20,000 bases of DNA from an uncultured virus (IMG/VR IMGVR_UViG_3300045253_000007) (Duplodnaviria > Heunggongvirae > Uroviricota > Caudoviricetes). The stretch lies in the IMG/VR virus record IMGVR_UViG_3300045253_000007; one strand, 5' to 3'. The notes under the pieces were generated by a model, which did not search any database, was not told the DNA's origin, and was given only the letters and a program-made list of their open reading frames with translations. Position numbers and translations under genes: made by a program. Below, piece after piece: positions 2,162 through 20,000 of the stretch (position 1 is its first letter; every line of letters starts with the position of its first letter).

Positions 2162-2265
2162 CTTGCATTGTCGTTGACAGTGTGGTAGTATGGTAGTTGT
2201 AACAAGGTGAGTTAACAACAAGCGTTCAGACAATCGGCTTGGCTCATTTATTTGGAAGGAAAACA

Positions 2266-3084
2266 ATGTCTATTACATTTTTAGGCACAGATTTTTCTGT
2301 GCCTATTTCTATGCAAGAACTGTATTCTGATAATACACCTAGAATCAAGATGGAAAATTTTGAGACGGTGTGTCAGAAGGCAGATACCGTCGTGGTTAAG
2401 CAAGGCTCTCTAGCAGAGTTTGTTAACGCGATGTTCTTGGTTGATTCTATTGCCTTAAAGGGCGGTAAGATTAGGAAGTTGATTCTTCCTTTCCTACCGG
2501 GTGCCCGACAGGATAGAGTTAATATAGACGGTGATGTTCTATTCACCGCTTCCTCAGTGGCGCAAATGATTAACTTGCGCGGCTTTGAGCAGGTCATTTC
2601 TGTTGACCCCCACTCCCGAGTAATGCCGGGATTCATCTACAACTTTGTCGAGTTTCCTCTCGCCAAGGTTTACGAGAAGTTGCCCAAGTCTTATGACGGA
2701 GTTATCGCTCCTGACAAGGGTGCTAAGGCTCGTGCCCGAACCGCTGCTCGTGTTCTGAATAAAACAGTCACGTACGCAGACAAGGTGCGCGACCCAGCGA
2801 CCGGTAGTCTATCAGGCTTTGCTGTCAACGTTGATGAAGACAAGCACTATATTGTCATTGATGATATAGCAGACGGTGGAGGCACGTTCCTTGGACTAGG
2901 AGAAAAGATTGCTGAACAAGGTGCCACGGCTGACCTTTACGTCACGCACGCTATCTTCTCAAAGGGAACAGACGACTTGAAAAAGATTTACAAGAACATC
3001 TACACAACAAATTCAATTAATAATGGACAGCGACCACTGGACGTAATCCGTCTGGACGTTGTGACAGAAATGGAGAAATACTAA
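2266..3084 (+). CDS. prs: Ribose-phosphate pyrophosphokinase family protein (candidate Adps of NARP1)
   Basis: PFLPGARQDR, VDPHS, APDKGA, VIDDIADGGGT, YVTHAIFS PRPP-synthetase motifs; ATG at 2266 follows GGAAGG. Confidence 0.9.
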   Translation: MSITFLGTDFSVPISMQELYSDNTPRIKMENFETVCQKADTVVVKQGSLAEFVNAMFLVDSIALKGGKIRKLILPFLPGARQDRVNIDGDVLFTASSVAQMINLRGFEQVISVDPHSRVMPGFIYNFVEFPLAKVYEKLPKSYDGVIAPDKGAKARARTAARVLNKTVTYADKVRDPATGSLSGFAVNVDEDKHYIVIDDIADGGGTFLGLGEKIAEQGATADLYVTHAIFSKGTDDLKKIYKNIYTTNSINNGQRPLDVIRLDVVTEMEKY

Positions 3085-4598
3085 TGTTTACGCTTAACCC
3101 GATTTTTCAGACGGACGGATACAAGTTGGACCACCGCCGTCAGTACCCGAAGGGTACACAGTACGTTTACTCAAACTGGACCGCTCGCGGTAGCCGAGTT
3201 CCCGGTATCAACAAGGTCACGTTCTTCGGCCTACAGTATGCGCTAAAGAAGTTGAACGATGAGTTTAAGGCTAACTTCTTCGCACGCGATGTAGACGAGG
3301 TTTGCAATGAGTATCAGGCAATGCTTGATTCTTTTCTAGGGCCGAACGATATCGGCACCGACCACATCAGGGCTTTGCATACTCTTGGCTACTTGCCTCT
3401 AGAGGTTAAGGCACTTCCCGAGGGTACCCGCGTTCCTCTCCGCGTTCCGATGCTTACCATCGAAAACACGCACCCGGAGTTCTTCTGGCTTACCAATTAC
3501 TTTGAGACAATCTTGTCTGCTGAGTTGTGGATGCCGATGACGAGCGCAACCGTTGCTTCTCACATTAGGCAAGACCTAAACGAGTGGGCATTGAAGACGA
3601 CCGGTAGCACCGAGGGCGTTGGTTTCAGCGGCCACGATTTCAGCATGCGAGGCATGGCCGGTGCTGAGGCTGCTATCGCTAGTGCCATGGGTCACCTTGT
3701 TGCCTTCACTGGCACCGAGACGGTTCCTGTTCTACAGGCTATTCCGTATTACTACCCCAACACAGGGTTCTTGGCCGGTACAGTTCCAGCAACAGAGCAC
3801 AGCGTTATGTGTGCAGGCGGTAAGGAAGACGAGACGGAGACATTCCAGCGTTTGCTAGATTTGTACCCGACTCAGATTCTAAGTGTCGTTTCTGACACAT
3901 GGGATTTCTGGAATGTTCTTACCAACATTCTTCCTAGCCTAAAGGACCAGATTCTTGCTCGCGGTGCAAACGGCGGTAAGTTGGTTGTACGTCCCGACAG
4001 CGGTGACCCTGCTGACATTATCTGTGGTACTAATGCTCAGGCAACTGATAATAACGGATGGGATTCTGTCGAAAAGGGTGCTATTCAGGTTCTCTGGGAT
4101 GAATTCGGCGGTACCATCAACGAGCAGGGCTACAAGGTTCTTAACCCAGCCGTAGGACTCATCTACGGTGACGCCATGAACCGTGGACGCATCAACAATA
4201 TTAACGAGCGTCTTGCAGCCAAGGGCTTCGCCAGCACAAACTGGGTCGCCGGTATTGGTAGTTTCAATTACCAATACCAGACTCGTGACACGTTCGGCTT
4301 TGCTATGAAGGCAACCAACGTTGTTATCGAAGATGAAGAAAAGGCTATCTTCAAGGACCCGAAGACAGACAATGGTTTGAAGAAGTCCCTAAAGGGTCGT
4401 ATCGGAGTCTTCACGCTAAAGAACGATGAGGACAACAGTCTTGTCAAGGGCAGCAAGGGCGACCTAGTTGCATTTGATGAACTCCGTAAGGATAGTAGCG
4501 CTTATGAAAATAGTCTGCTAGAGCCTGTGTTTAGGGATGGTGTCTTCATCAAGGAATGGACCTTTGATGAGGTTCGTGCAAACAGCGGACTCGTTTAA
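3084..4598 (+). CDS. nadV: Nicotinamide phosphoribosyltransferase family protein (candidate Namat of NARP1)
   Basis: TDGYKLDH, HDFSMRG, PATEHSVM, SVVSDTWD, VRPDSGDP, IYGD, KDPKTD NAMPT motifs; TAATG coupling to the prs-like gene. Confidence 0.95.
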   Translation: MFTLNPIFQTDGYKLDHRRQYPKGTQYVYSNWTARGSRVPGINKVTFFGLQYALKKLNDEFKANFFARDVDEVCNEYQAMLDSFLGPNDIGTDHIRALHTLGYLPLEVKALPEGTRVPLRVPMLTIENTHPEFFWLTNYFETILSAELWMPMTSATVASHIRQDLNEWALKTTGSTEGVGFSGHDFSMRGMAGAEAAIASAMGHLVAFTGTETVPVLQAIPYYYPNTGFLAGTVPATEHSVMCAGGKEDETETFQRLLDLYPTQILSVVSDTWDFWNVLTNILPSLKDQILARGANGGKLVVRPDSGDPADIICGTNAQATDNNGWDSVEKGAIQVLWDEFGGTINEQGYKVLNPAVGLIYGDAMNRGRINNINERLAAKGFASTNWVAGIGSFNYQYQTRDTFGFAMKATNVVIEDEEKAIFKDPKTDNGLKKSLKGRIGVFTLKNDEDNSLVKGSKGDLVAFDELRKDSSAYENSLLEPVFRDGVFIKEWTFDEVRANSGLV

Positions 4599-5530
4599 TG
4601 TACGAACCCATGTTGGCTCGCTCAGCCGAAGAGTCTGACCTTTCCACAAAGGACTGGACCGGCTGGTCGCTTGAACCCAAGCACGACGGCATGCGAGCAA
4701 TCATTGAAATTACCGATGCGGGAGTTGAAATATACTCCCGCACCGGTAAGTCACAAAAGGGTAAATGCCCTCACCTAGAACACGCACTGTCCTTTCTGCC
4801 TCACGGTACCGTGCTAGACGGCGAGATTGCCATGGTAGTTAATAGTATAACTGTCAATGGTCAAGATGTACCGGTGGTAGATTTTAATAAGACCATGCGC
4901 GTTATGGGCAGTGGTGTAGAAAAGGCAGTATTGCGCCAGCAGGAGTTGGGCGAGGTATCATTCCTTGTATTCGACATCATGCAATACTGTGGTGAAGATG
5001 TTACCACGTATTCTCAGAAGTACCGCAACGAGTTGGTTGACATGCTGGACGCAAACTACATGGTTCACAACCCAAAGTACGAGACTGATTTTGCTGAGGT
5101 TTATGCAGAACTTATTGCGAATGGTGTCGAGGGCGCTATTCTCAAAAACCTTAACGCAATGCAATACGTCGCCGGTAGGTCCAAGAATTGGCTAAAGGTC
5201 AAGTCTGCTAAGACCTTTGATGTAGTAGTCATGGGGTATACACCCGGTCAAGGTAAGTACGAAGGTAACCTAGGTGCTATCGAATTTGGTGCTTATCTTC
5301 CAAATGGTGTTTTGAAATATGTTGGTCGTTGTTCGGGCATGACCGATGAGGAACGTGGCTACTGGTTTAAGAAACTGTCTACCGGCGTTCATCCACATGG
5401 TGTCATCGAAGTTAAGGCTAATGAGATGGTTGGTTCTGGTGAGTATCGAACGCCTAGGCATCCTCAGTACGTAACTAAGCGCATAGACAAGAACCCAGAA
5501 GACTGTAAAATGGACCAGTTCAAGGCTTGA
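4598..5530 (+). CDS. ATP-dependent DNA ligase
   Basis: Motif I EPKHDGMR, LDGEI, FDIM, EGAILK, WLKVK and a C-terminal OB fold with TPRHP. Confidence 0.92.
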   Translation: MYEPMLARSAEESDLSTKDWTGWSLEPKHDGMRAIIEITDAGVEIYSRTGKSQKGKCPHLEHALSFLPHGTVLDGEIAMVVNSITVNGQDVPVVDFNKTMRVMGSGVEKAVLRQQELGEVSFLVFDIMQYCGEDVTTYSQKYRNELVDMLDANYMVHNPKYETDFAEVYAELIANGVEGAILKNLNAMQYVAGRSKNWLKVKSAKTFDVVVMGYTPGQGKYEGNLGAIEFGAYLPNGVLKYVGRCSGMTDEERGYWFKKLSTGVHPHGVIEVKANEMVGSGEYRTPRHPQYVTKRIDKNPEDCKMDQFKA

Positions 5531-5583
5531 CAAGCACTGTCCGATATGTTAGGGTTGTGCTTCACACCAACGAAAGGCATCAC

Positions 5584-6237
5584 ATGCGAAAGATTTTAAG
5601 CGCGGCGGTAGCGGTTCTTGTCATCCTTGGAGGATTCATCCTTGTTGCCCAGCACGCTCAGGCAAACAACAAACTAGCGGTATGCCACCCAGTAAACGGT
5701 AAGGGCGAACTAGGTAATGGTTGGGATTTGATTAGTCCTGATAAGGCATCGTCTCACATCAATGAGGCTTTGTACCCCAATGGTCATTACTGGAAGCACG
5801 AAGCCAAGGATGGACGCCATGACGAATATGCGGTTAACGGTAAGTGTGGCATGTTGCCCACGCCGACTCCTGACCCGATTCCCAGTATTAGGCCCAGTCC
5901 GTCTGTGACCCCAACGGTTACGCCTACACCAACAACGCCGGTAGACGTTATGGTAACCCCACAGTACCTACATCATGTTACGTGTATTCCAAAGTATAGT
6001 GATAACATGACAATTGTTCCCAACGTTGGATACACTGGCACCGTAAAGGACAATGGTGACTATGATGTCCTCACCTTTGTAGCCAAGCCGGGGTACATTT
6101 TGGATAATAACAGTAAGACCGAAGTCATCACTGTTAGGAAGATTGTACCTAGGTGCATCGCACCCAAGCCTACAGTCAAGCATACGCCTATTAAGGTTAA
6201 CTCTACACCGACAGCGCTACCCAATACGGGAGCCTGA
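5584..6237 (+). CDS. Secreted Pro/Thr-rich protein ending in LPNTG
   Basis: ATG 5584 after GAAAGG; signal peptide ending AQA; PTPTP linker; C-terminal LPNTGA-stop. Confidence 0.8.
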   Translation: MRKILSAAVAVLVILGGFILVAQHAQANNKLAVCHPVNGKGELGNGWDLISPDKASSHINEALYPNGHYWKHEAKDGRHDEYAVNGKCGMLPTPTPDPIPSIRPSPSVTPTVTPTPTTPVDVMVTPQYLHHVTCIPKYSDNMTIVPNVGYTGTVKDNGDYDVLTFVAKPGYILDNNSKTEVITVRKIVPRCIAPKPTVKHTPIKVNSTPTALPNTGA

Positions 6238-7457: not shown

Positions 7458-8245
7458 GAAAACTCACATCGATGCCTGCAAGCAAACGTGGTTTTGATAA
7501 CTAAATACATAGGGGCATGGCCCTGATAAGCAATCGCAAGATTGCGAAAGGTGGAGTGACACCCGCCGCCAGCAATGGTCAATTCATGCAATGCAAATCG
7601 TTAAGTAATATCCTATCAGATGTTGCAGTAACGTAAGCCACCCAGTCGATGTCCTATGGATGAGACTACCTGACAAGGTAAGAGGATAAACGGTGAGCGT
7701 TATGTTCGATACGCAGGGATATACGAATCCGAGGTTTGCAGCCAAGGGTGACTATCCATGAAACGTATGAAGTGGGCCGGTAGGCTCATGGGAGCGTAGA
7801 GATTGTAAGTAGCCGCAAGCGAAAGCATATTGAAGGAGTGAAGCATTCTTATTCTCAAAAGGAATCGGAACTTCGTGTTAAAGCACTTCTTCGTCAAGTC
7901 CCTTCGGGGCAGGGATTATATGCCCCGACATACAATGATAATGTATATCACAATATAAAGCAAAAGACTTTAACCCTGTGAGATGCGAAAGCGTCTTAAT
8001 GCCAGACCGAAAGGAATCTGGTGCAGAGGAAGGCCGCAAGCCCAATCTGTTTGGTATCAAAGTAGGAACCTTTAGCGGCTTAGCGGCTGCTCTTGTTTTC
8101 AAAATGAGCCGAGTAGCCTCACAGGTAAAGAGCGGTTGGCTTAACCAACTAGGCGCAGAGGCTACCGTAGCGATACGGTGGAAAAGCAACTAAACCATAC
8201 GGTTGCAAGAGGTCTCTATGTTAGGGTGAATTCTAAGCCCTCACA
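7458..8245 (+). ncRNA. GOLLD-like large ncRNA
   Basis: ~790 nt between tRNAs with no credible ORF; many GNRA/UUCG hairpins (7530-7545, 7980-7997, 8163-8180); long-range CCTGTGAG/CTCACAGG pairing; motif order TATTGAAG...CTCAAAAGG...AGCAAAAG...GAGTAG...GTGGA resembles GOLLD as I recall it. Confidence 0.7.
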
Positions 8246-9056: not shown

Positions 9057-9129
9057 TTTAGGATAGTGTAAAGTAACACGCCAGCCTTTAACGCTGGTAA
9101 TGCGGATTAACGACCCGATTCTAACACCA
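9057..9129 (+). tRNA. tRNA-like gene with TTA anticodon (ochre-suppressor-like)
   Basis: D arm GTGT-AAAGTA-ACAC; perfect CCAGC-CTTTAAC-GCTGG anticodon arm; acceptor TTAGGA/TTCTAA; encoded ACCA; degenerate T arm. Confidence 0.6.
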
Positions 9130-11091: not shown

Positions 11092-11454
11092 GGGGATGCC
11101 ATGGTATCGCCTCGGTGTAGAGAGAAATGAACGCAACCCGTGTTACGAAATGACAGACACGTTAAACAGTTATTTCAACAATAAATGCAAACGACGCAAT
11201 CGTTGCTAAGGCTATGGAAAACTTTGACTCTGAACTAGAGGCATTGCTTTCTGAGGCCGCTCTTATCTCTGCGTAAGTAGAATAAGACTAGGTACCGGCG
11301 ACCTAGCGAACCAAATGCCGGAATAGGAACTATCCTTAAATAGTTGGTGGACCCGGAGCAATCTGGCCTAGCAATACCGGGCGCGGTACGCAATGGTTGT
11401 ATAATGTTATTGATTAAAGCACTGAGTACGTGAGTTCGACTCTCACCATCTCCA
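11092..11454 (+). ncRNA. ssrA: tmRNA
   Basis: GGGGATG/CATCTCC-A acceptor with G3:U70; GTGAG-TTCGACT-CTCAC T arm; ATAAAT|GCA resume context; tag frame 11187-11276 ANDAIVAKAMENFDSELEALLSEAALISA*. Confidence 0.92.
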
Positions 11455-11563
11455 CGATTAGAGCGAAAGTAGTTTGGATTCAAAGTTCAAGGAGATTTTC
11501 AATAACCTACCAGCAGAGCAAAGGCGTGACATTTCAAACCGCTATCGTAAGTAGGAGGCAAGG

Positions 11564-12138: not shown

Positions 12139-12225
12139 TCTGGTAAGGCGACTGTTGGCTAGTCGCGGTTGGCTGTTAACCAACTCGGTTTGATTCCGTC
12201 TCAGGTTCGATTCCTGATTCCAGAG
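12139..12225 (+). tRNA. Atypical tRNA-Asn(GTT) with long variable arm and 6-bp D stem
   Basis: GCGACT/AGTCGC D stem; GTTGG-CTGTTAA-CCAAC; CGG-TTTGATT-CCG variable arm; TCAGG-TTCGATT-CCTGA. Confidence 0.8.
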
Positions 12226-12326
12226 CAAAGGCAGGGAACGCTACCGAATCTATTCCGTGGTGAGACTAGGGATGGAAAAGATATAAGATTGTTGTCTCAT
12301 CCAAATCTTATATCACGTATCCACAT

Positions 12327-14968: not shown

Positions 14969-15000
14969 TTGACACGGTACCACCAAGTGTGGTACCGTGT
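14969..15000 (+). promoter_or_regulatory. Promoter overlapping a perfect inverted repeat
   Basis: TTGACA at 14969; ACACGGTACCAC-CAAGT-GTGGTACCGTGT. Confidence 0.6.
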
Positions 15001-15028
15001 TTCCGTACCCACAACACAAGGAGTTACT

Positions 15029-15514
15029 ATGCGCATCAACAAGGGTGACCTATTCACCAGCGATTGCGAGGCACTAGGCCACGGCGTTAACGTGCGTGGA
15101 CTCATGGGAGCCGGTATCGCAAAGACGTTCAAGGAACGTTATCCAGAAAACTACCTGTCTTACGGACAGCAGTGCAAGGTCAACGGTCTAATTCCGGGCG
15201 GCGTTCTCGTTGTACCTTGTTACGAGGCAGACATGAATGCCAAGCACGTCCAGCGTTATATCGTAAATATGGCTAGCCAAAGGCAGCCCGGTCCAGACGC
15301 AACCTACTCGTGGCTTTTCTCTTCTGCTTTGGCAGCAGCCAAACAGTTGAAGTCCATCGGCGTTTACGAATGCGCCATTCCTGAGATTGGTTGTGGCATC
15401 GGCGGTCTTGAATGGCCGGTAGCGGAACTGATTCTTACTACCATTGAGCAACTCGTTCCCGGTTTCGAATGGGAAGTTTGGCAATACGCTCAGGTAACGT
15501 ACAATGAAGGTTAA
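15029..15514 (+). CDS. Macrodomain (ADP-ribose processing, DarG/TARG1-like) protein
   Basis: GDLF, HGVN..GLMGAGIA..FK.RYPE, PEIGCGIGGLEW; ATG 15029 after AAGGAG. Confidence 0.9.
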   Translation: MRINKGDLFTSDCEALGHGVNVRGLMGAGIAKTFKERYPENYLSYGQQCKVNGLIPGGVLVVPCYEADMNAKHVQRYIVNMASQRQPGPDATYSWLFSSALAAAKQLKSIGVYECAIPEIGCGIGGLEWPVAELILTTIEQLVPGFEWEVWQYAQVTYNEG

Positions 15515-15779
15515 GTTCTACAAAGGTCCATATCATGGCAAGGTGCAAGAGCACCAGATAATGAGTTTTGACTTACCAATAATTGTCGATGTGCTACCTA
15601 AGCGTTTTAGTGCAACATATTTTAATGCCAGCACGTATTATCCTACAACCATTCAAACAGACCGACACATTTATCGAATTAGGATGATGGGTGTCAAAGA
15701 CTCTACCGGCAAGATGTATCAGGCACCAGCCATGCACCCGGATGGTAGTCTTTTCTACGTATACGAAGGAAAATACTAA
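15504..15779 (+). CDS. Hypothetical protein
   Basis: 91-aa ORF overlapping its neighbours in operon fashion; N-terminal FYKGPYHG. Confidence 0.75.
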   Translation: MKVKFYKGPYHGKVQEHQIMSFDLPIIVDVLPKRFSATYFNASTYYPTTIQTDRHIYRIRMMGVKDSTGKMYQAPAMHPDGSLFYVYEGKY

Positions 15780-16267
15780 TGTGGACACTAAAACAACTTA
15801 AGTTATTACTTCGCAAGAGCGGTGGTACAACTGACTTTAGCCAGAGTGCGGTGGTTGTCTGGCCGGTATTCTACCCGGAGGACATGTTCCCGCCAAACGA
15901 CCCACATGTTACCGTCCTTTACATGCCTGATGTTAGTAACACTAATAAGAAGGACGTGATTGACGCTATCAAGAAAACAGACTGGAACACAATGCCGCTG
16001 GCTCGCGTCAGTGGACAGGAGATGTTTGGTCCGTTGAAGGACACGCCGGTACTGACGTTGGACCACGATTTCCTTGAAGAATACTGGAATCAATTGCAGG
16101 GTGAGTTTCAACTCGCTGGTATTGAGTATTCTCAGAGGTTCCCAGAGTACCGACCGCACGTCACCATCACGCAGGATGCGGTAGCGTTTGACAATTTCCC
16201 GACGCAGTTTCTTCTAGCGCCGGTAGAACTTTGGTGGCAAGAGCAGAAGGTTTCCATCAGTGACTAG
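15779..16267 (+). CDS. 2H phosphoesterase (Acb1 / 2'-5' RNA ligase superfamily)
   Basis: Two HxT motifs: PHVTVLY and FPEYRPHVTI. Confidence 0.8.
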   Translation: MWTLKQLKLLLRKSGGTTDFSQSAVVVWPVFYPEDMFPPNDPHVTVLYMPDVSNTNKKDVIDAIKKTDWNTMPLARVSGQEMFGPLKDTPVLTLDHDFLEEYWNQLQGEFQLAGIEYSQRFPEYRPHVTITQDAVAFDNFPTQFLLAPVELWWQEQKVSISD

Positions 16268-17339: not shown

Positions 17340-18182
17340 ATGCAAATATTTATGGTTGGCGGTGCTGTCCGCGACGAGTTGCTTGGACAGAAGTCCAAGG
17401 ATTTGGATTACACCGTAGTTGTCAGTCCAGAAGAATGTTTTAATGGTCATTCTTGGGAAACTTACGACCCCTTCCGCGTCATGGTCAATAAACTAAAGTC
17501 TGACGGATATAAGATTTTTCTTGAAACTCCTGAATACTTTACTGTTCGCGCACAAACTCCTGACAAAAGAGAAACAGCCGACTTTGTTCTTGCTCGCAAA
17601 GAGGATAAGTACACCGATGGACGCAGGCCAGATAAGGTCGAGGTTGGAACACTTCTAGATGATTTGGGCCGTAGAGATTTTGGAATGAACGCTATCGCCA
17701 AGGCCGCAGACGGCTCTCTCATCGACCCGTTTAATGGTCGTGAGGATATCACCCAGCGTATTATCCGAGCCGTTGGTGACCCCGTAGAACGTCTTACAGA
17801 GGATGCTCTCAGGGCAGTCCGAGCCTTCCGCTTCGCTGTGACCAAGGGTTTCTTGATTCAGAGAGACCTTAGTAAAGCAATGGAGTCCGACGAGGTTCTT
17901 AACGCTATTGAAACCAAGATTTCTGACGAGCGCATTCAGCAGGAACTCTCCAAGGCTTTTAGGTTCGATACTGGTCTGGCCGGTAGTGTTCTATTTTACG
18001 GATATCCAGACTTGGCAGAAGCATGTTTCGCCGGTAGTGTATCACTTGACGCTACCATGAAGACAAAGGGTTTTAACAAGCCCAAGCCAGATAACAAGCG
18101 TAAAAACTTGCCAGAAGCGCGTAATGGTTGTACTTGCTCCTGTCACACAAGTGGCGGAATGCACATCTCTAAGTGCTGTTGA
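17340..18182 (+). CDS. cca: Class II tRNA nucleotidyltransferase (CCA-adding/poly(A) polymerase family)
   Basis: VGGAVRD...DLD, DLGRRDFGMNA, DPFNG, EDALRAVRAFRF, SDERI; AGGAGG RBS. Confidence 0.92.
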   Translation: MQIFMVGGAVRDELLGQKSKDLDYTVVVSPEECFNGHSWETYDPFRVMVNKLKSDGYKIFLETPEYFTVRAQTPDKRETADFVLARKEDKYTDGRRPDKVEVGTLLDDLGRRDFGMNAIAKAADGSLIDPFNGREDITQRIIRAVGDPVERLTEDALRAVRAFRFAVTKGFLIQRDLSKAMESDEVLNAIETKISDERIQQELSKAFRFDTGLAGSVLFYGYPDLAEACFAGSVSLDATMKTKGFNKPKPDNKRKNLPEARNGCTCSCHTSGGMHISKCC

Positions 18183-18193
18183 AAGGAAATAAT

Positions 18194-18382
18194 ATGAGGC
18201 TTTGTGAAAATGAAACAACTGAGGTATATCAGAACTATGGAGAAGAACTAAGTATTCTTCTTATTGATACCGCTTTGAAGGTTAATGAACTAGAAAAGTC
18301 TGAGGACTACTCTTGGTTTAATCTGACAGTTCAGACTGATATCGAAGAAGGCTACATAGTAACTCTTTACGCTCACGGTTGA
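18194..18382 (+). CDS. Hypothetical acidic protein
   Basis: ATG 18194 after AAAGGA. Confidence 0.7.
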   Translation: MRLCENETTEVYQNYGEELSILLIDTALKVNELEKSEDYSWFNLTVQTDIEEGYIVTLYAHG

Positions 18383-18407
18383 CAATCACGCGCCGGTAGT
18401 GTATAGT
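18379..18407 (+). promoter_or_regulatory. SigA-type promoter for a tRNA cluster
   Basis: TTGACA-N17-TATAGT with GCCGGTAGTG in the spacer. Confidence 0.8.
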
Positions 18408-18453
18408 AGTATTTGTTGGTGGCTGCTATAGGGTAGTAAGCGTCAACATTTAT

Positions 18454-18536
18454 GCGCCATTGGTGAAACGGTAAACACAGTAGTCTTAGAAACTACCGCC
18501 CGGACGGGTTTGAGGGTTCGACTCCCTTGTGGCGCA
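18454..18536 (+). tRNA. tRNA-Leu(TAG)
   Basis: GCGCCAT/GTGGCGC-A; GTAGT-CTTAGAA-ACTAC; long variable arm. Confidence 0.92.
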
Positions 18537-18577
18537 CAAATCCTAGTTGACATACGACAACAATAGGAGGTATCAAA

Positions 18578-18727
18578 ATGAAAGATGTTTGTGAGTTCTG
18601 TTCCGATAAGGAATGTGACGGCATTCAAACATGGGGTTCCGACCCTTATGCAAGTGAGATTAACGGCGATGACACAGATTACTTTATGTGTGAAGGTCAG
18701 CGTTGGGAGTCTGCACAAGAGATTTAG
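18578..18727 (+). CDS. Small acidic Cys-containing protein, 49 aa (MKDVCEFC...DPYASEI...)
   Basis: AGGAGG RBS 8 nt upstream; clean ORF between tRNAs. Confidence 0.75.
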   Translation: MKDVCEFCSDKECDGIQTWGSDPYASEINGDDTDYFMCEGQRWESAQEI

Positions 18728-18790
18728 TCTAAACCGCGATACGTGTTGGAAGAGATACGTTAATGGGAGCGGTATAAAAGATACCAATAT

Positions 18791-18871
18791 GCCAGTGTGG
18801 TGTAACGGCAGCCACGGCAGTTTCAAACGCTGTTGCCTTCGGGCGTGAGGGTTCGACTCCCTTCACTGGTA
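18791..18871 (+). tRNA. tRNA-Leu(CAA)
   Basis: GCCAGTG/CACTGGT-A; GCAGT-TTCAAAC-GCTGT; variable arm GCC-TTCG-GGC. Confidence 0.9.
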
Positions 18872-18879
18872 CGTAATAA

Positions 18880-18964
18880 GGAAATGTGTCCGAGAGGCTT
18901 ATGGTACAAACTTGGAAAGTTTGTGTAGGTAAAACTACCGCAGGTTCGAATCCTGTCATTTCCG
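18880..18964 (+). tRNA. tRNA-Ser(GGA)
   Basis: GGAAATG/CATTTCC-G; CAAAC-TTGGAAA-GTTTG; long variable arm. Confidence 0.93.
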
Positions 18965-19019
18965 CTGGATATGTAAGTCGCTCAATACATATAGTTAAAT
19001 TGGGTGTTTTATCCAACTC

Positions 19020-19096
19020 GTCCGCGTGGTCAAATTAGGCAAAGGCGCTCGGCTTAGACCCGAGAGATTTTGTGGGTTCGATTCCCACCGTGGATA
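19020..19096 (+). tRNA. tRNA-Leu(TAG), short variable arm
   Basis: GTCCGCG/CGTGGAT-A; CTCGG-CTTAGAC-CCGAG; GTGGG-TTCGATT-CCCAC. Confidence 0.85.
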
Positions 19097-19104
19097 CGCA
19101 ACAT

Positions 19105-19179
19105 GGTTCTGTAGAGAATTGGCATATCGCTCTGGCTTAAAACTAGAGGTCATTGTGGGTTCGAATCCCACCAGAACTA
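19105..19179 (+). tRNA. tRNA-Leu(TAA), short variable arm
   Basis: GGTTCTG/CAGAACT-A; TCTGG-CTTAAAA-CTAGA. Confidence 0.85.
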
Positions 19180-19180
19180 C

Positions 19181-19360
19181 GCATCTATAGCACAACATTC
19201 TACTAAGGATATCCGGTAAGGAATAAACGAAGGTAAGCGCACCTTCAAAGTAGCCACAAAGAGAAAACTTAGACTCTAGGTAGTACGCGAATGCCATAAG
19301 AGGGAGTGCATCTCCCGACCGGGGAAAGTATTTTGGTATGAAATCCAGATAGGTGCTCCA
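19181..19360 (+). ncRNA. 180-nt RNA with tRNA-like acceptor stem, T-arm and encoded CCA (unassigned)
   Basis: GCATCTA/TAGGTGC-T-CCA; TTTGG-TATGAAAT-CCAGA T-like arm; multi-hairpin interior. Confidence 0.6.
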
Positions 19361-19361
19361 A

Positions 19362-19435
19362 GCGTCCGTAGTTTAATTGGAAAAACCGCAGGCTTTTACC
19401 CTGTCAGACTCTCGGTTCGAATCCGAGTGGGCGTA
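19362..19435 (+). tRNA. tRNA-Lys(TTT)
   Basis: GCGTCCG/TGGGCGT-A; GCAGG-CTTTTAC-CCTGT. Confidence 0.9.
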
Positions 19436-19581
19436 CGATACGAGTAAGAAATTATTCGTAAGGGGTAACCAATCCCACTTAGTACCTTCGCCGGTATGAT
19501 GTAAGAAGAAAACTTCAAATTGGAAAGTCCCATTAAATACAGACACACCGAGATGCGCGGTACGAGTATTGTGGGCAACAA

Positions 19582-19654
19582 GCGTCTGTAGCATAATGGT
19601 AAATGCCCTTGTCTTATATACAAGTTTATTTCGGTTCAACCCCGAACGGACGTA
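19582..19654 (+). tRNA. tRNA-Ile(TAT)
   Basis: GCGTCTG/CGGACGT-A; CTTGT-CTTATAT-ACAAG; TTCGG-TTCAACC-CCGAA. Confidence 0.82.
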
Positions 19655-19766
19655 CAATAATACGGTAGAAATTATATAAACTCTACCGGGCGGCACCAGA
19701 GTTCGCGCGACGGAATCGCTTAGACATAATCATTCGCAAGATGATGAGTAGACTAGCAAAAGACAG

Positions 19767-19839
19767 GTGCTATTAGTCTCAGTGGTAGAGCGCTTCCCCG
19801 ACACGGAAGAGGTCGAAGGTTCGAATCCTTCATAGCACA
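19767..19839 (+). tRNA. tRNA-Val(GAC)
   Basis: GTGCTAT/ATAGCAC-A; CTTCC-CCGACAC-GGAAG (C33 instead of U33). Confidence 0.88.
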
Positions 19840-19924
19840 CTACCCAAGTAAACCTAGGCGGTCTAATCACTACCGGGCTAACCTAGGGAGCCATTGGCTC
19901 GGGCAGGCATACAAAAGTGATTAT

Positions 19925-20000
19925 GGAAGATGAAACTTGATGGTGATGGTGCCTCCCTGCTAAGGAGTGCGGTCCTGAAAGGGGCTTAGGTTCGAGTCCT
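19925..20000 (+). tRNA. tRNA-Ser(GCT), truncated by window end
   Basis: GGAAGAT start; CTCC-CTGCTAA-GGAG; long variable arm; AGG-TTCGAGT-CCT. Confidence 0.85.

Follow-up and report, generated by a model that had tools for sequence, protein, structure and literature searches.

A tRNA-like element between two phage tRNA genes

What kind of gene occupies the 180 nucleotides (nt) between two neighbouring transfer RNA (tRNA) genes of an uncultured phage, and what might its RNA do? The question is raised by a 20,000-nt stretch of the virus record IMGVR_UViG_3300045253_000007 (the window, taken from an uncultured phage contig of 77,429 bases), in which an element at 19181-19360 takes up the entire space between tRNA-Leu(UAA) and tRNA-Lys(UUU). 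One base separates it from each neighbour: C19180 follows A73 of tRNA-Leu(UAA), whose Rfam match ends at 19179, and A19361 precedes the start of tRNA-Lys(UUU) at 19362. The element can be read as a tRNA-derived gene with a 112-nt D-loop, and its tRNA ancestry is well supported. On a balance that tips slightly in favour, we take it to specify a processed, CCA-ended, non-decoding tRNA mimic. Its parts, in tRNA register, are as follows.

19181..19187, + strand: 5′ strand of the acceptor stem, GCAUCUA (element positions 1-7); 7/7 pairs with 19350-19356, one of them G.U; pair probability 0.98-1.0
19188..19189, + strand: U8 and A9, in canonical register
19190..19193, + strand: 5′ strand of the D stem, GCAC (element 10-13); 4/4 pairs with 19306-19309; ensemble probability 0.1
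19194..19305, + strand: 112-nt D-loop, beginning with A14 and ending in GGGA; about 100 extra bases
19306..19309, + strand: 3′ strand of the D stem, GUGC (element 126-129), from the cloverleaf scan
19310..19327, + strand: A26 and the remnant of an anticodon arm, with stem 19311-19315 / 19323-19327 (element 131-135 / 143-147)
19328..19331, + strand: 4-nt variable loop, GUAU, from the cloverleaf scan
19332..19349, + strand: T-like arm (stem at element 152-156 / 165-169), UUUGG/CCAGA (TTTGG/CCAGA in the DNA); ensemble probability up to 0.25
19350..19356, + strand: 3′ strand of the acceptor stem, UAGGUGC (element 170-176), pairing with the 5′ strand
19357..19360, + strand: discriminator U73 (T at 19357) and encoded CCA (19358-19360)

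Only one of the 21 pairs in the four stems is lost, whereas conserved bases have changed at several places in the loops, including G in place of U33 and a T-loop that reads UAUGAAAU in the RNA (TATGAAAT in the DNA), 8 nt long and without the TTC motif. The anticodon-arm remnant retains four of its five pairs, with one C.A mismatch, and carries the 7-nt loop CGACCGG, in which 'ACC' stands in register, position 33 is G and position 37 is a purine, G37. The GGGA at the end of the D-loop offers candidates for G18, G19 and A21.

An initial annotation of this locus had described tRNA-like ends around some 140 nt that replace the D and anticodon arms. The end features that it named (the terminal pairing GCATCTA/TAGGTGC, T73, the encoded CCA, the T-like arm at 19332-19349 and the 1-nt spacers) are all in the sequence. 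The replacement of the two arms did not hold up: a D stem and an anticodon-arm remnant stand in tRNA register, and the extra sequence is the 112-nt D-loop. The 'tRNA mimic' of the same annotation stands in the sense of tRNA ancestry, with stems, variable loop, U73 and CCA in register and tRNA-Gly(UCC) as the closest, though weakly matching, tRNA in the window.

Set against an ordinary tRNA gene, the element has the 7-bp acceptor stem with discriminator base and CCA. Its D-loop of 112 nt compares with a usual ~7-11 nt on a 3-4 bp stem, the 4-bp stem being present in register; its anticodon arm falls short of a 5-bp stem with a 7-nt loop and U33, the purine at 37 being present; and its T-loop has 8 nt in place of the 7-nt TTCRANN, on a 5-bp stem that is present. 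We file it as tRNA-derived and not as a tRNA because of the D-loop size, the missing U33, the lack of a 7-nt T-loop and the absence of a call by any tRNA finder. A tRNA with an intron in its anticodon loop was rejected, as ARAGORN with introns of 0-300 nt permitted found nothing.

The bacterial glycine identity set comprises U73, G1-C72, C2-G71, G3-C70, C35 and C36. Within the window, the tRNA closest to the tRNA-like parts of the element is tRNA-Gly(UCC) at 415-485, a weak match, and the two have in common G1-C72, C2-G71, A3-U70, U73 and the D-stem strand GUGC. C35 and C36 are also present in canonical register, in the in-register 'anticodon' ACC; at 3:70 the element and the phage's own tRNA-Gly(UCC) both have A-U, where the glycine set has G3-C70. 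Judged by these bases, the element appears, weakly, most like a glycine-type tRNA.

Significance against chance

The 182-nt inter-tRNA gap was subjected to 200,000 dinucleotide shuffles, among which the terminal 7-bp pairing arose 1715 times and the same pairing together with the T-like arm 0 times. When acceptor stem and T arm were held fixed and only the interior was shuffled, a D stem and an anticodon arm in register were obtained in 102 of 200,000 cases (criterion: a 4-bp D stem and an anticodon arm with at least 4/5 pairs, at canonical spacing). The feature is real and lies well beyond chance.

The same design in other phage contigs

Comparison loci, 63 of them (0.5 Mb) and later 144 (2.0 Mb), were fetched around related CCA-enzyme genes. 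A cloverleaf scanner permitting a long D-loop was written to find analogues in related contigs, and the window element was among its matches. Two further genes of D-loop-insert design were found in one contig, IMGVR_UViG_3300036652_001273 (L081), and a weaker case in another.

2027-2177 of L081: gene 1, 84-nt D-loop, ending in GCCA, between tRNA-Phe (ARAGORN end 2025) and tRNA-Ile (start 2179)
4272-4455 of L081: gene 2, 116-nt D-loop, ending in ACCA
20294-20427 of L123/L141: weaker fourth case, 3/4 D-stem pairs

Like the window element, the L081 genes combine acceptor stem, D stem, anticodon arm, T arm and an encoded NCCA with a long D-loop (84 or 116 nt), and gene 1 also sits flush between two tRNAs, starting one base after the ARAGORN end of the Phe gene, with its CCA a single base ahead of the Ile gene. 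For both L081 genes RNAfold yields the cloverleaf unaided, with the insert inside the D stem, and their anticodon loops, UUAACAC and AUAAGCG, have a proper U33. Canonical T-loops, U33 and a cloverleaf minimum-free-energy fold are thus found in the L081 copies and all three are missing from the window element; the L081 inserts share no sequence with the window insert. No further copy of the L081 elements or of other long elements was found in the fetched loci. As far as the open full-text literature shows, the L081 genes are undescribed.

The L081 array comprises 35 tRNAs, a GOLLD RNA and a related CCA-adding enzyme, so that both phages have a GOLLD RNA together with such an enzyme. The L081 GOLLD RNA lies at 2880-3315 within the array, with a tRNA match nested in it at 2954-3018, on a contig that is unrelated to that of the window.

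In other long tRNA-like genes the additional bases lie in the variable region or stand in for the anticodon arm. Canonical T arms with acceptor ends whose only partner is distant (96-330 nt) numbered 59, against 13 in reversed-sequence controls (1.9 Mb), an enrichment of long tRNA-like elements in loci of this kind. The D-loop-insert candidates have A34 in three of four cases, compared with 6 of 248 ordinary tRNAs of the same loci, in a tiny sample in which two of the four loops are non-canonical. The A34 anticodons, ACC in the window and AAG and AAC in L081, all belong to four-codon boxes.

Explanations for the element

The reading of the element as a processed, non-decoding mimic would run as follows. 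Co-transcription with the tRNA array is probable, because the element lies in a same-strand run of tRNA genes behind a promoter-like site. RNase P, 3′-end trimming enzymes and CCA-adding enzymes recognise a stacked 12-bp helix of acceptor stem and T arm, and the acceptor stem and T-like arm of the element would form such a helix. Because that helix is intact, the RNA could be released flush with its neighbours by RNase P and 3′ trimming, as a 180-nt molecule ending in CCA. Decoding has probably been lost, given G33, the mismatched anticodon arm, the possible collapse of that arm into a hairpin with a 5-nt loop or its pairing with the insert, and the 8-nt T-loop without TTC. The likeliest role would be that of a non-decoding mimic, which could be a substrate of acceptor-end-reading enzymes or compete for them; candidate targets are RNase P, the CCA enzyme, possibly glycyl-tRNA synthetase (via G1-C72, C2-G71 and U73) and host nucleases directed at tRNA. 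With 20 of 21 stem pairs intact while conserved loop bases have changed, we tentatively infer a maintained helix scaffold in preference to uniform decay.

Several results weigh against this reading, starting with detection. ARAGORN does not call the element with or without its intron option (introns of 0-300 nt), and Rfam gave no tRNA match on it either over the whole window at the gathering score or over 19100-20000 at E-values up to 10. The encoded CCA is not rare here, being found by reading in 6 of the 34 genes in a listing of 3′ ends, and in four of those six the next tRNA follows after exactly one base. A lax scan for an acceptor stem and T-like arm 100-320 nt apart returned 343 matches in 4.0 Mb on both strands, and 328 in a second run from which the ends of called tRNAs were removed; because this background is high, significance rests on position and register.

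Folding is no more favourable. RNAfold gave -44.0 kcal/mol for the unconstrained element, -42.6 when the acceptor stem and T arm were imposed and -39.5 when the complete cloverleaf was, so that thermodynamics mildly favour the alternative fold of the initial annotation. The internal stems listed there do exist, and four of them (CCGGT/ACCGG, GAAGGT/ACCTTC, AGAG/CTCT and GGGAG/CTCCC) are part of the minimum-free-energy structure. In the ensemble the tRNA arms have low pair probabilities, 0.1 in the D stem, at most 0.13 in the anticodon stem and at most 0.25 in the T stem, compared with 0.8 for CCGGU/ACCGG and 0.63 for GGGAG/CUCCC. The former of these two helices, part of the preferred fold, joins CCGGU in the insert to ACCGG in the anticodon loop, and the bases of the anticodon arm can alternatively form a 5-bp hairpin with a 5-nt loop. 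The 'large structured insert' of the initial annotation was not borne out: the insert alone has a fold z-score of -0.48, with 54 of 200 shuffles folding equally well, and the whole element reaches -1.47, neither of them surpassing shuffled sequence. The two L081 elements, at -1.45 and -0.05, are equally unremarkable. The present RNA may adopt either the cloverleaf or the fold first proposed. We make no claim for a codon-like pairing between CCGGU of the insert and the ACCGG that contains the 'anticodon', as ~0.3 perfect 5-bp matches are expected by chance.

Nor was a sequence homolog found in any collection searched, a search that the initial annotation had proposed. Blastn of 19100-19450 against the phage collection matched the flanking tRNAs only; with 18400-20000 (187 records), the tRNA-Lys match alone among the 40 matches listed enters the element, by its last 6 bases; and a megablast search with the entire window returned four records, every one a tRNA match. 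Exact patterns had 0 matches in IMG/VR viral contigs. Against the 63 and then the 144 loci the best blastn E-values were 0.58 and 2.2, and nhmmer gave no match; when six related IMG/VR records, of which two are 94% and 97% complete, were searched in full, the best E-value was 0.077, and one inspected match was a chance 14-mer within apparent coding sequence. Since no homolog was found, there is no evidence from covariation or conservation. A syntenic contig (L005/L066) has tRNA-Leu(UAG), Leu(CAA) and Leu(UAA), a 180-nt spacer and Ile(UAU), and lacks both the element and tRNA-Lys(UUU), so the element and tRNA-Lys were, as a pair, either gained here or lost there.

The insert itself does not recur within the window, nothing similar to it was found in the 144 loci, and no terminal inverted repeat was seen by eye; with no similarity to the L081 inserts either, a mobile insert was rejected. 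A small ribozyme was likewise set aside, as no Rfam ribozyme family matched the insert. Theta ribozymes (PMC10879173) sit after tRNA 3′ ends and not in D-loops. No known RNA family in Rfam explains the element, at the gathering score over the whole window or at E-values up to 10 over 19100-20000, which answers a check that the initial annotation had named. No description of phage tRNAs with D-loop inserts was found in the full-text literature, subscription journals lying outside its coverage.

Much of this would be expected of a dead gene, that is, a tRNA-Gly disrupted by ~100 bp in its D-loop and now decaying, any RNA from it being without a role. The degenerate features (G33, the C.A mismatch, the non-canonical 8-nt T-loop), the silence of the tRNA finders, an insert without detectable structure, and the element's absence from L005 and from the six related whole records, with no homologs, all speak for such a relic. 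Uniform decay should, however, hit the stems as well, and here all but one of the 21 stem pairs survive, as do the flush junctions and the CCA; the architecture also occurs twice in well-formed shape in L081, and nothing marks the insert as a mobile element, as it has no second copy in the window and no kin in the 144 loci. We treat the dead gene as the main rival, a serious but rather unlikely alternative. A broader proposal, which we find unlikely, is that of an undescribed class of D-loop-expanded phage tRNAs: complete cloverleaves with an encoded CCA, a lineage-specific D-loop module of 70-116 nt and preferentially A34 anticodons of four-codon boxes. Members of such a class might still decode, their elbow being recognised in a different way, or might be chargeable decoys by which host defences directed at tRNA are evaded or soaked up; the window element would then be a diverged member.

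That the window element itself is a working decoder, a tRNA-Gly(ACC) able to function with its enlarged D-loop or to lose the insert by splicing, is improbable in our judgement. Its parts keep to the cloverleaf register, 'ACC' would contribute C35 and C36 to the glycine set alongside U73, G1-C72 and C2-G71, the only other glycine tRNAs in the window are Gly(UCC) and Gly(GCC), both D-loop-insert genes of L081 keep U33 loops, and the A34 excess described above would fit. Against this stand G33, the mismatched anticodon stem and the 8-nt T-loop without TTC, and the intron variant gains nothing from the insert, in which Rfam detected no catalytic RNA family, or from the 13 open reading frames of the window that were scanned, among which no splicing endonuclease gene was seen. 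About 100 nt is too short for a group I or group II intron.

Least credible, and largely refuted, is the miniature RNA resembling transfer-messenger RNA (tmRNA) that the initial annotation had also raised, with a tRNA-like domain around a short tag frame. The ends do pair as in the tRNA-like domain of tmRNA, the long helix CCGGU/ACCGG encloses a multiloop in the interior of the minimum-free-energy fold, and the reported 16-codon frame EGKRTFKVATKRKLRL* is present at 19229-19279 after AATAAAC, where the tmRNA of the window has AATAAAT before its resume codon GCA. This shared AATAAA context is, however, short and A-rich, and by our own estimate random sequence would contain an open frame of 16 codons about one time in two. 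The frame is moreover atypical: tmRNA tags have an Ala-type resume codon and a hydrophobic C-terminus, whereas this one begins with GAA, within the GAAGGU/ACCUUC hairpin, and ends in the basic KRKLRL, the window's own tag starting with A and ending in ALISA. A3-U70 stands in place of G3.U70, the G.U pair sitting at 4:69; ARAGORN and Rfam are silent here, though both find the real tmRNA; no pseudoknots were seen, although no formal pseudoknot search was made; the phage has a tmRNA already; and D and anticodon arms in register are not expected of a tmRNA.

Genomic setting

The genes and sites nearest to the element are listed here.

17340..18182, + strand: phage CCA-adding enzyme gene (PF01743, E 5.4e-20), 1 kb upstream of the element
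18379..18407, + strand: promoter-like site before the tRNA sub-array, TTGACA, 17 nt, TATAGT; 11/12 matches, a consensus match only
19105..19179, + strand: upstream neighbour tRNA-Leu(UAA), found by ARAGORN and Rfam
19362..19435, + strand: downstream neighbour tRNA-Lys(UUU), found by ARAGORN and Rfam; 94.5% identical to tRNA-Lys(UUU) of Rhodococcus phage NiceHouse

The element lies within a single same-strand run of tRNA genes that has the promoter-like site ahead of it. The closest cultured relatives of the CCA enzyme are from Microbacterium and Arthrobacter phages (42-49% identity), and the closest metagenomic proteins are 58-69% identical. The window itself is absent from the phage collection. 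ARAGORN called 30 tRNAs in the window and a tmRNA, also found by Rfam, at 11092-11455 or, in the wider span used here, 11092-11457; Rfam adds a GOLLD RNA at 7831-8240 and three more tRNA matches. Other genes recognised by a Pfam scan encode NAD-salvage enzymes, an ATP-dependent ligase, a macro domain, a 2H phosphoesterase and the CCA-adding enzyme.

In NiceHouse (L064), 530 unannotated bases (2480-3007) upstream of tRNA-Lys(UUU) have no relatives in the phage collection. They contain a T arm, an acceptor 3′ strand and ACCA together with a complementary 5′ strand and a D arm, in a weakly YrlA-like permuted topology (19 bits), as well as a match to the tRNA model in which 88 nt replace the anticodon arm (20.9 bits), and a 7-bp hairpin with ACCA stands one base ahead of tRNA-Lys(UUU). 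The region was considered as a homolog and rejected, as it holds other tRNA-like pieces, none of them homologous to the window element.

Several further features of the window were recorded. The GOLLD RNA at 7831-8240 lies inside a tRNA array and scores 188.3 bits (E 5.8e-52). The predicted tag of the tmRNA (11092-11457), ANDAIVAKAMENFDSELEALLSEAALISA, is unusually long; the tags of related contigs end in ...AEAALVNA (L004) and ...AEAALVTA (L005). A tRNA-Asn(GUU) of 88 nt at 12139-12226, long for class I, adjoins a normal 73-nt tRNA-Asn and is also called in the syntenic contigs (L004 5360-5447, L005 4717-4804). Rfam tRNA matches of 30-38 bits that ARAGORN missed are found at 89-177, 1386-1458 and 9057-9126, the last of which encodes CCA and lies one base ahead of tRNA-Cys, and ARAGORN reports a 'tRNA-???' with a 2-base anticodon at 519-592. 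At 2049-2088, one base short of tRNA-Arg(UCU), lies a 9-bp hairpin (GCCGGTACA/TGTACCGGC) with TGCCACCA after it, which may be another acceptor-like minihelix or a processing signal.

Downstream of the element, two inter-tRNA spacers were left uncalled, 19437-19581 (145 nt) and 19656-19766 (111 nt). The former has the direct repeat TACGAGTA near both ends, and its 3′ part resembles the sequence ahead of tRNA-Ile(UAU) in L005. A tRNA truncated by the end of the window (19926-20000, 21 bits) is by eye of class II, with anticodon GCU (Ser). Beside the tRNA arrays, at 2239-6237 and 14969-16267, Pfam matches include a phosphoribosyltransferase domain, a NAMPT/NAPRTase-family enzyme, an ATP-dependent DNA ligase, a macro domain and a 2H phosphoesterase, the last a weak, Acb1/LigT-like match; the set looks like one for NAD regeneration, RNA repair or counter-defence.

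Comparison with known systems and significance

Phage tRNA arrays are usually annotated only by the calls of tRNA finders, to which elements of this kind are invisible. Should the RNA prove to be made and processed, it would give a concrete case for the old unsolved problem of stable RNAs in tRNA clusters (T4 species 1 and 2), and would show that a D-loop can hold a 100-nt module while the 'handle' of acceptor stem and T arm is kept. If true, the proposal would also bear on the ways in which phages feed or jam the enzymes of tRNA processing, tRNA charging and tRNA-cleaving defence, on natural tRNA scaffolds for RNA expression, and on the annotation of tRNA genes in viral metagenomes. If the element is merely a disrupted tRNA gene, it is an ordinary relic.

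Among better-known RNAs, tmRNA (RF00023) resembles the element in its acceptor stem and T arm, its CCA end and its large internal region; the element differs in lacking G3.U70, a plausible tag and a match to the model, and no pseudoknots were seen in it, again short of a formal search. Bacterial Y RNA of the YrlA type (RF02553) has in common with it a tRNA-like module in a longer non-coding RNA, but the ends of the element form an acceptor stem, unlike the Ro-binding stem of YrlA. YrlA was rejected as an identification, the sole match in the window, at 19132-19260 and mostly over tRNA-Leu, scoring 14.7 bits against a gathering score of 69 (E 7.1).

Some archaeal and red-algal tRNA genes have non-canonical introns, including ones at D-loop positions, and a protein splicing endonuclease excises these introns at bulge-helix-bulge motifs. 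The likeness to the element is an intervening sequence in the D-loop of an otherwise complete cloverleaf; the difference is that the window belongs to a bacteriophage-like contig, with no splicing endonuclease seen among the 13 open reading frames scanned. That unusual tRNA intron types exist is stated in PMC4090602.

The nearest named precedent is rnaC and rnaD of phage T4 (species 1 and 2), stable non-tRNA RNAs of 139 and 119 nt that lie within and next to the tRNA array (NC_000866 annotation). To our knowledge, their function is still unknown. T4 rnaC has a canonical T arm (CCGGG/UUCGAAU/CCCGG) beside an acceptor-like 3′ end, and rnaD ends in ...GCGCACC followed by A. Blastn of the phage collection, T4 included, gave no sequence similarity to the window element, and by reading rnaC is without the clean 7-bp acceptor stem and the encoded CCA that the element has. 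In PMC2330249, a figure legend names 'RNA species I and II' in maps of the tRNA region. The window element keeps all four tRNA stems and confines its extra bases to the D-loop; it belongs with the known, poorly understood tRNA-like RNAs of phage tRNA clusters, among which the D-loop-insert variant is new.

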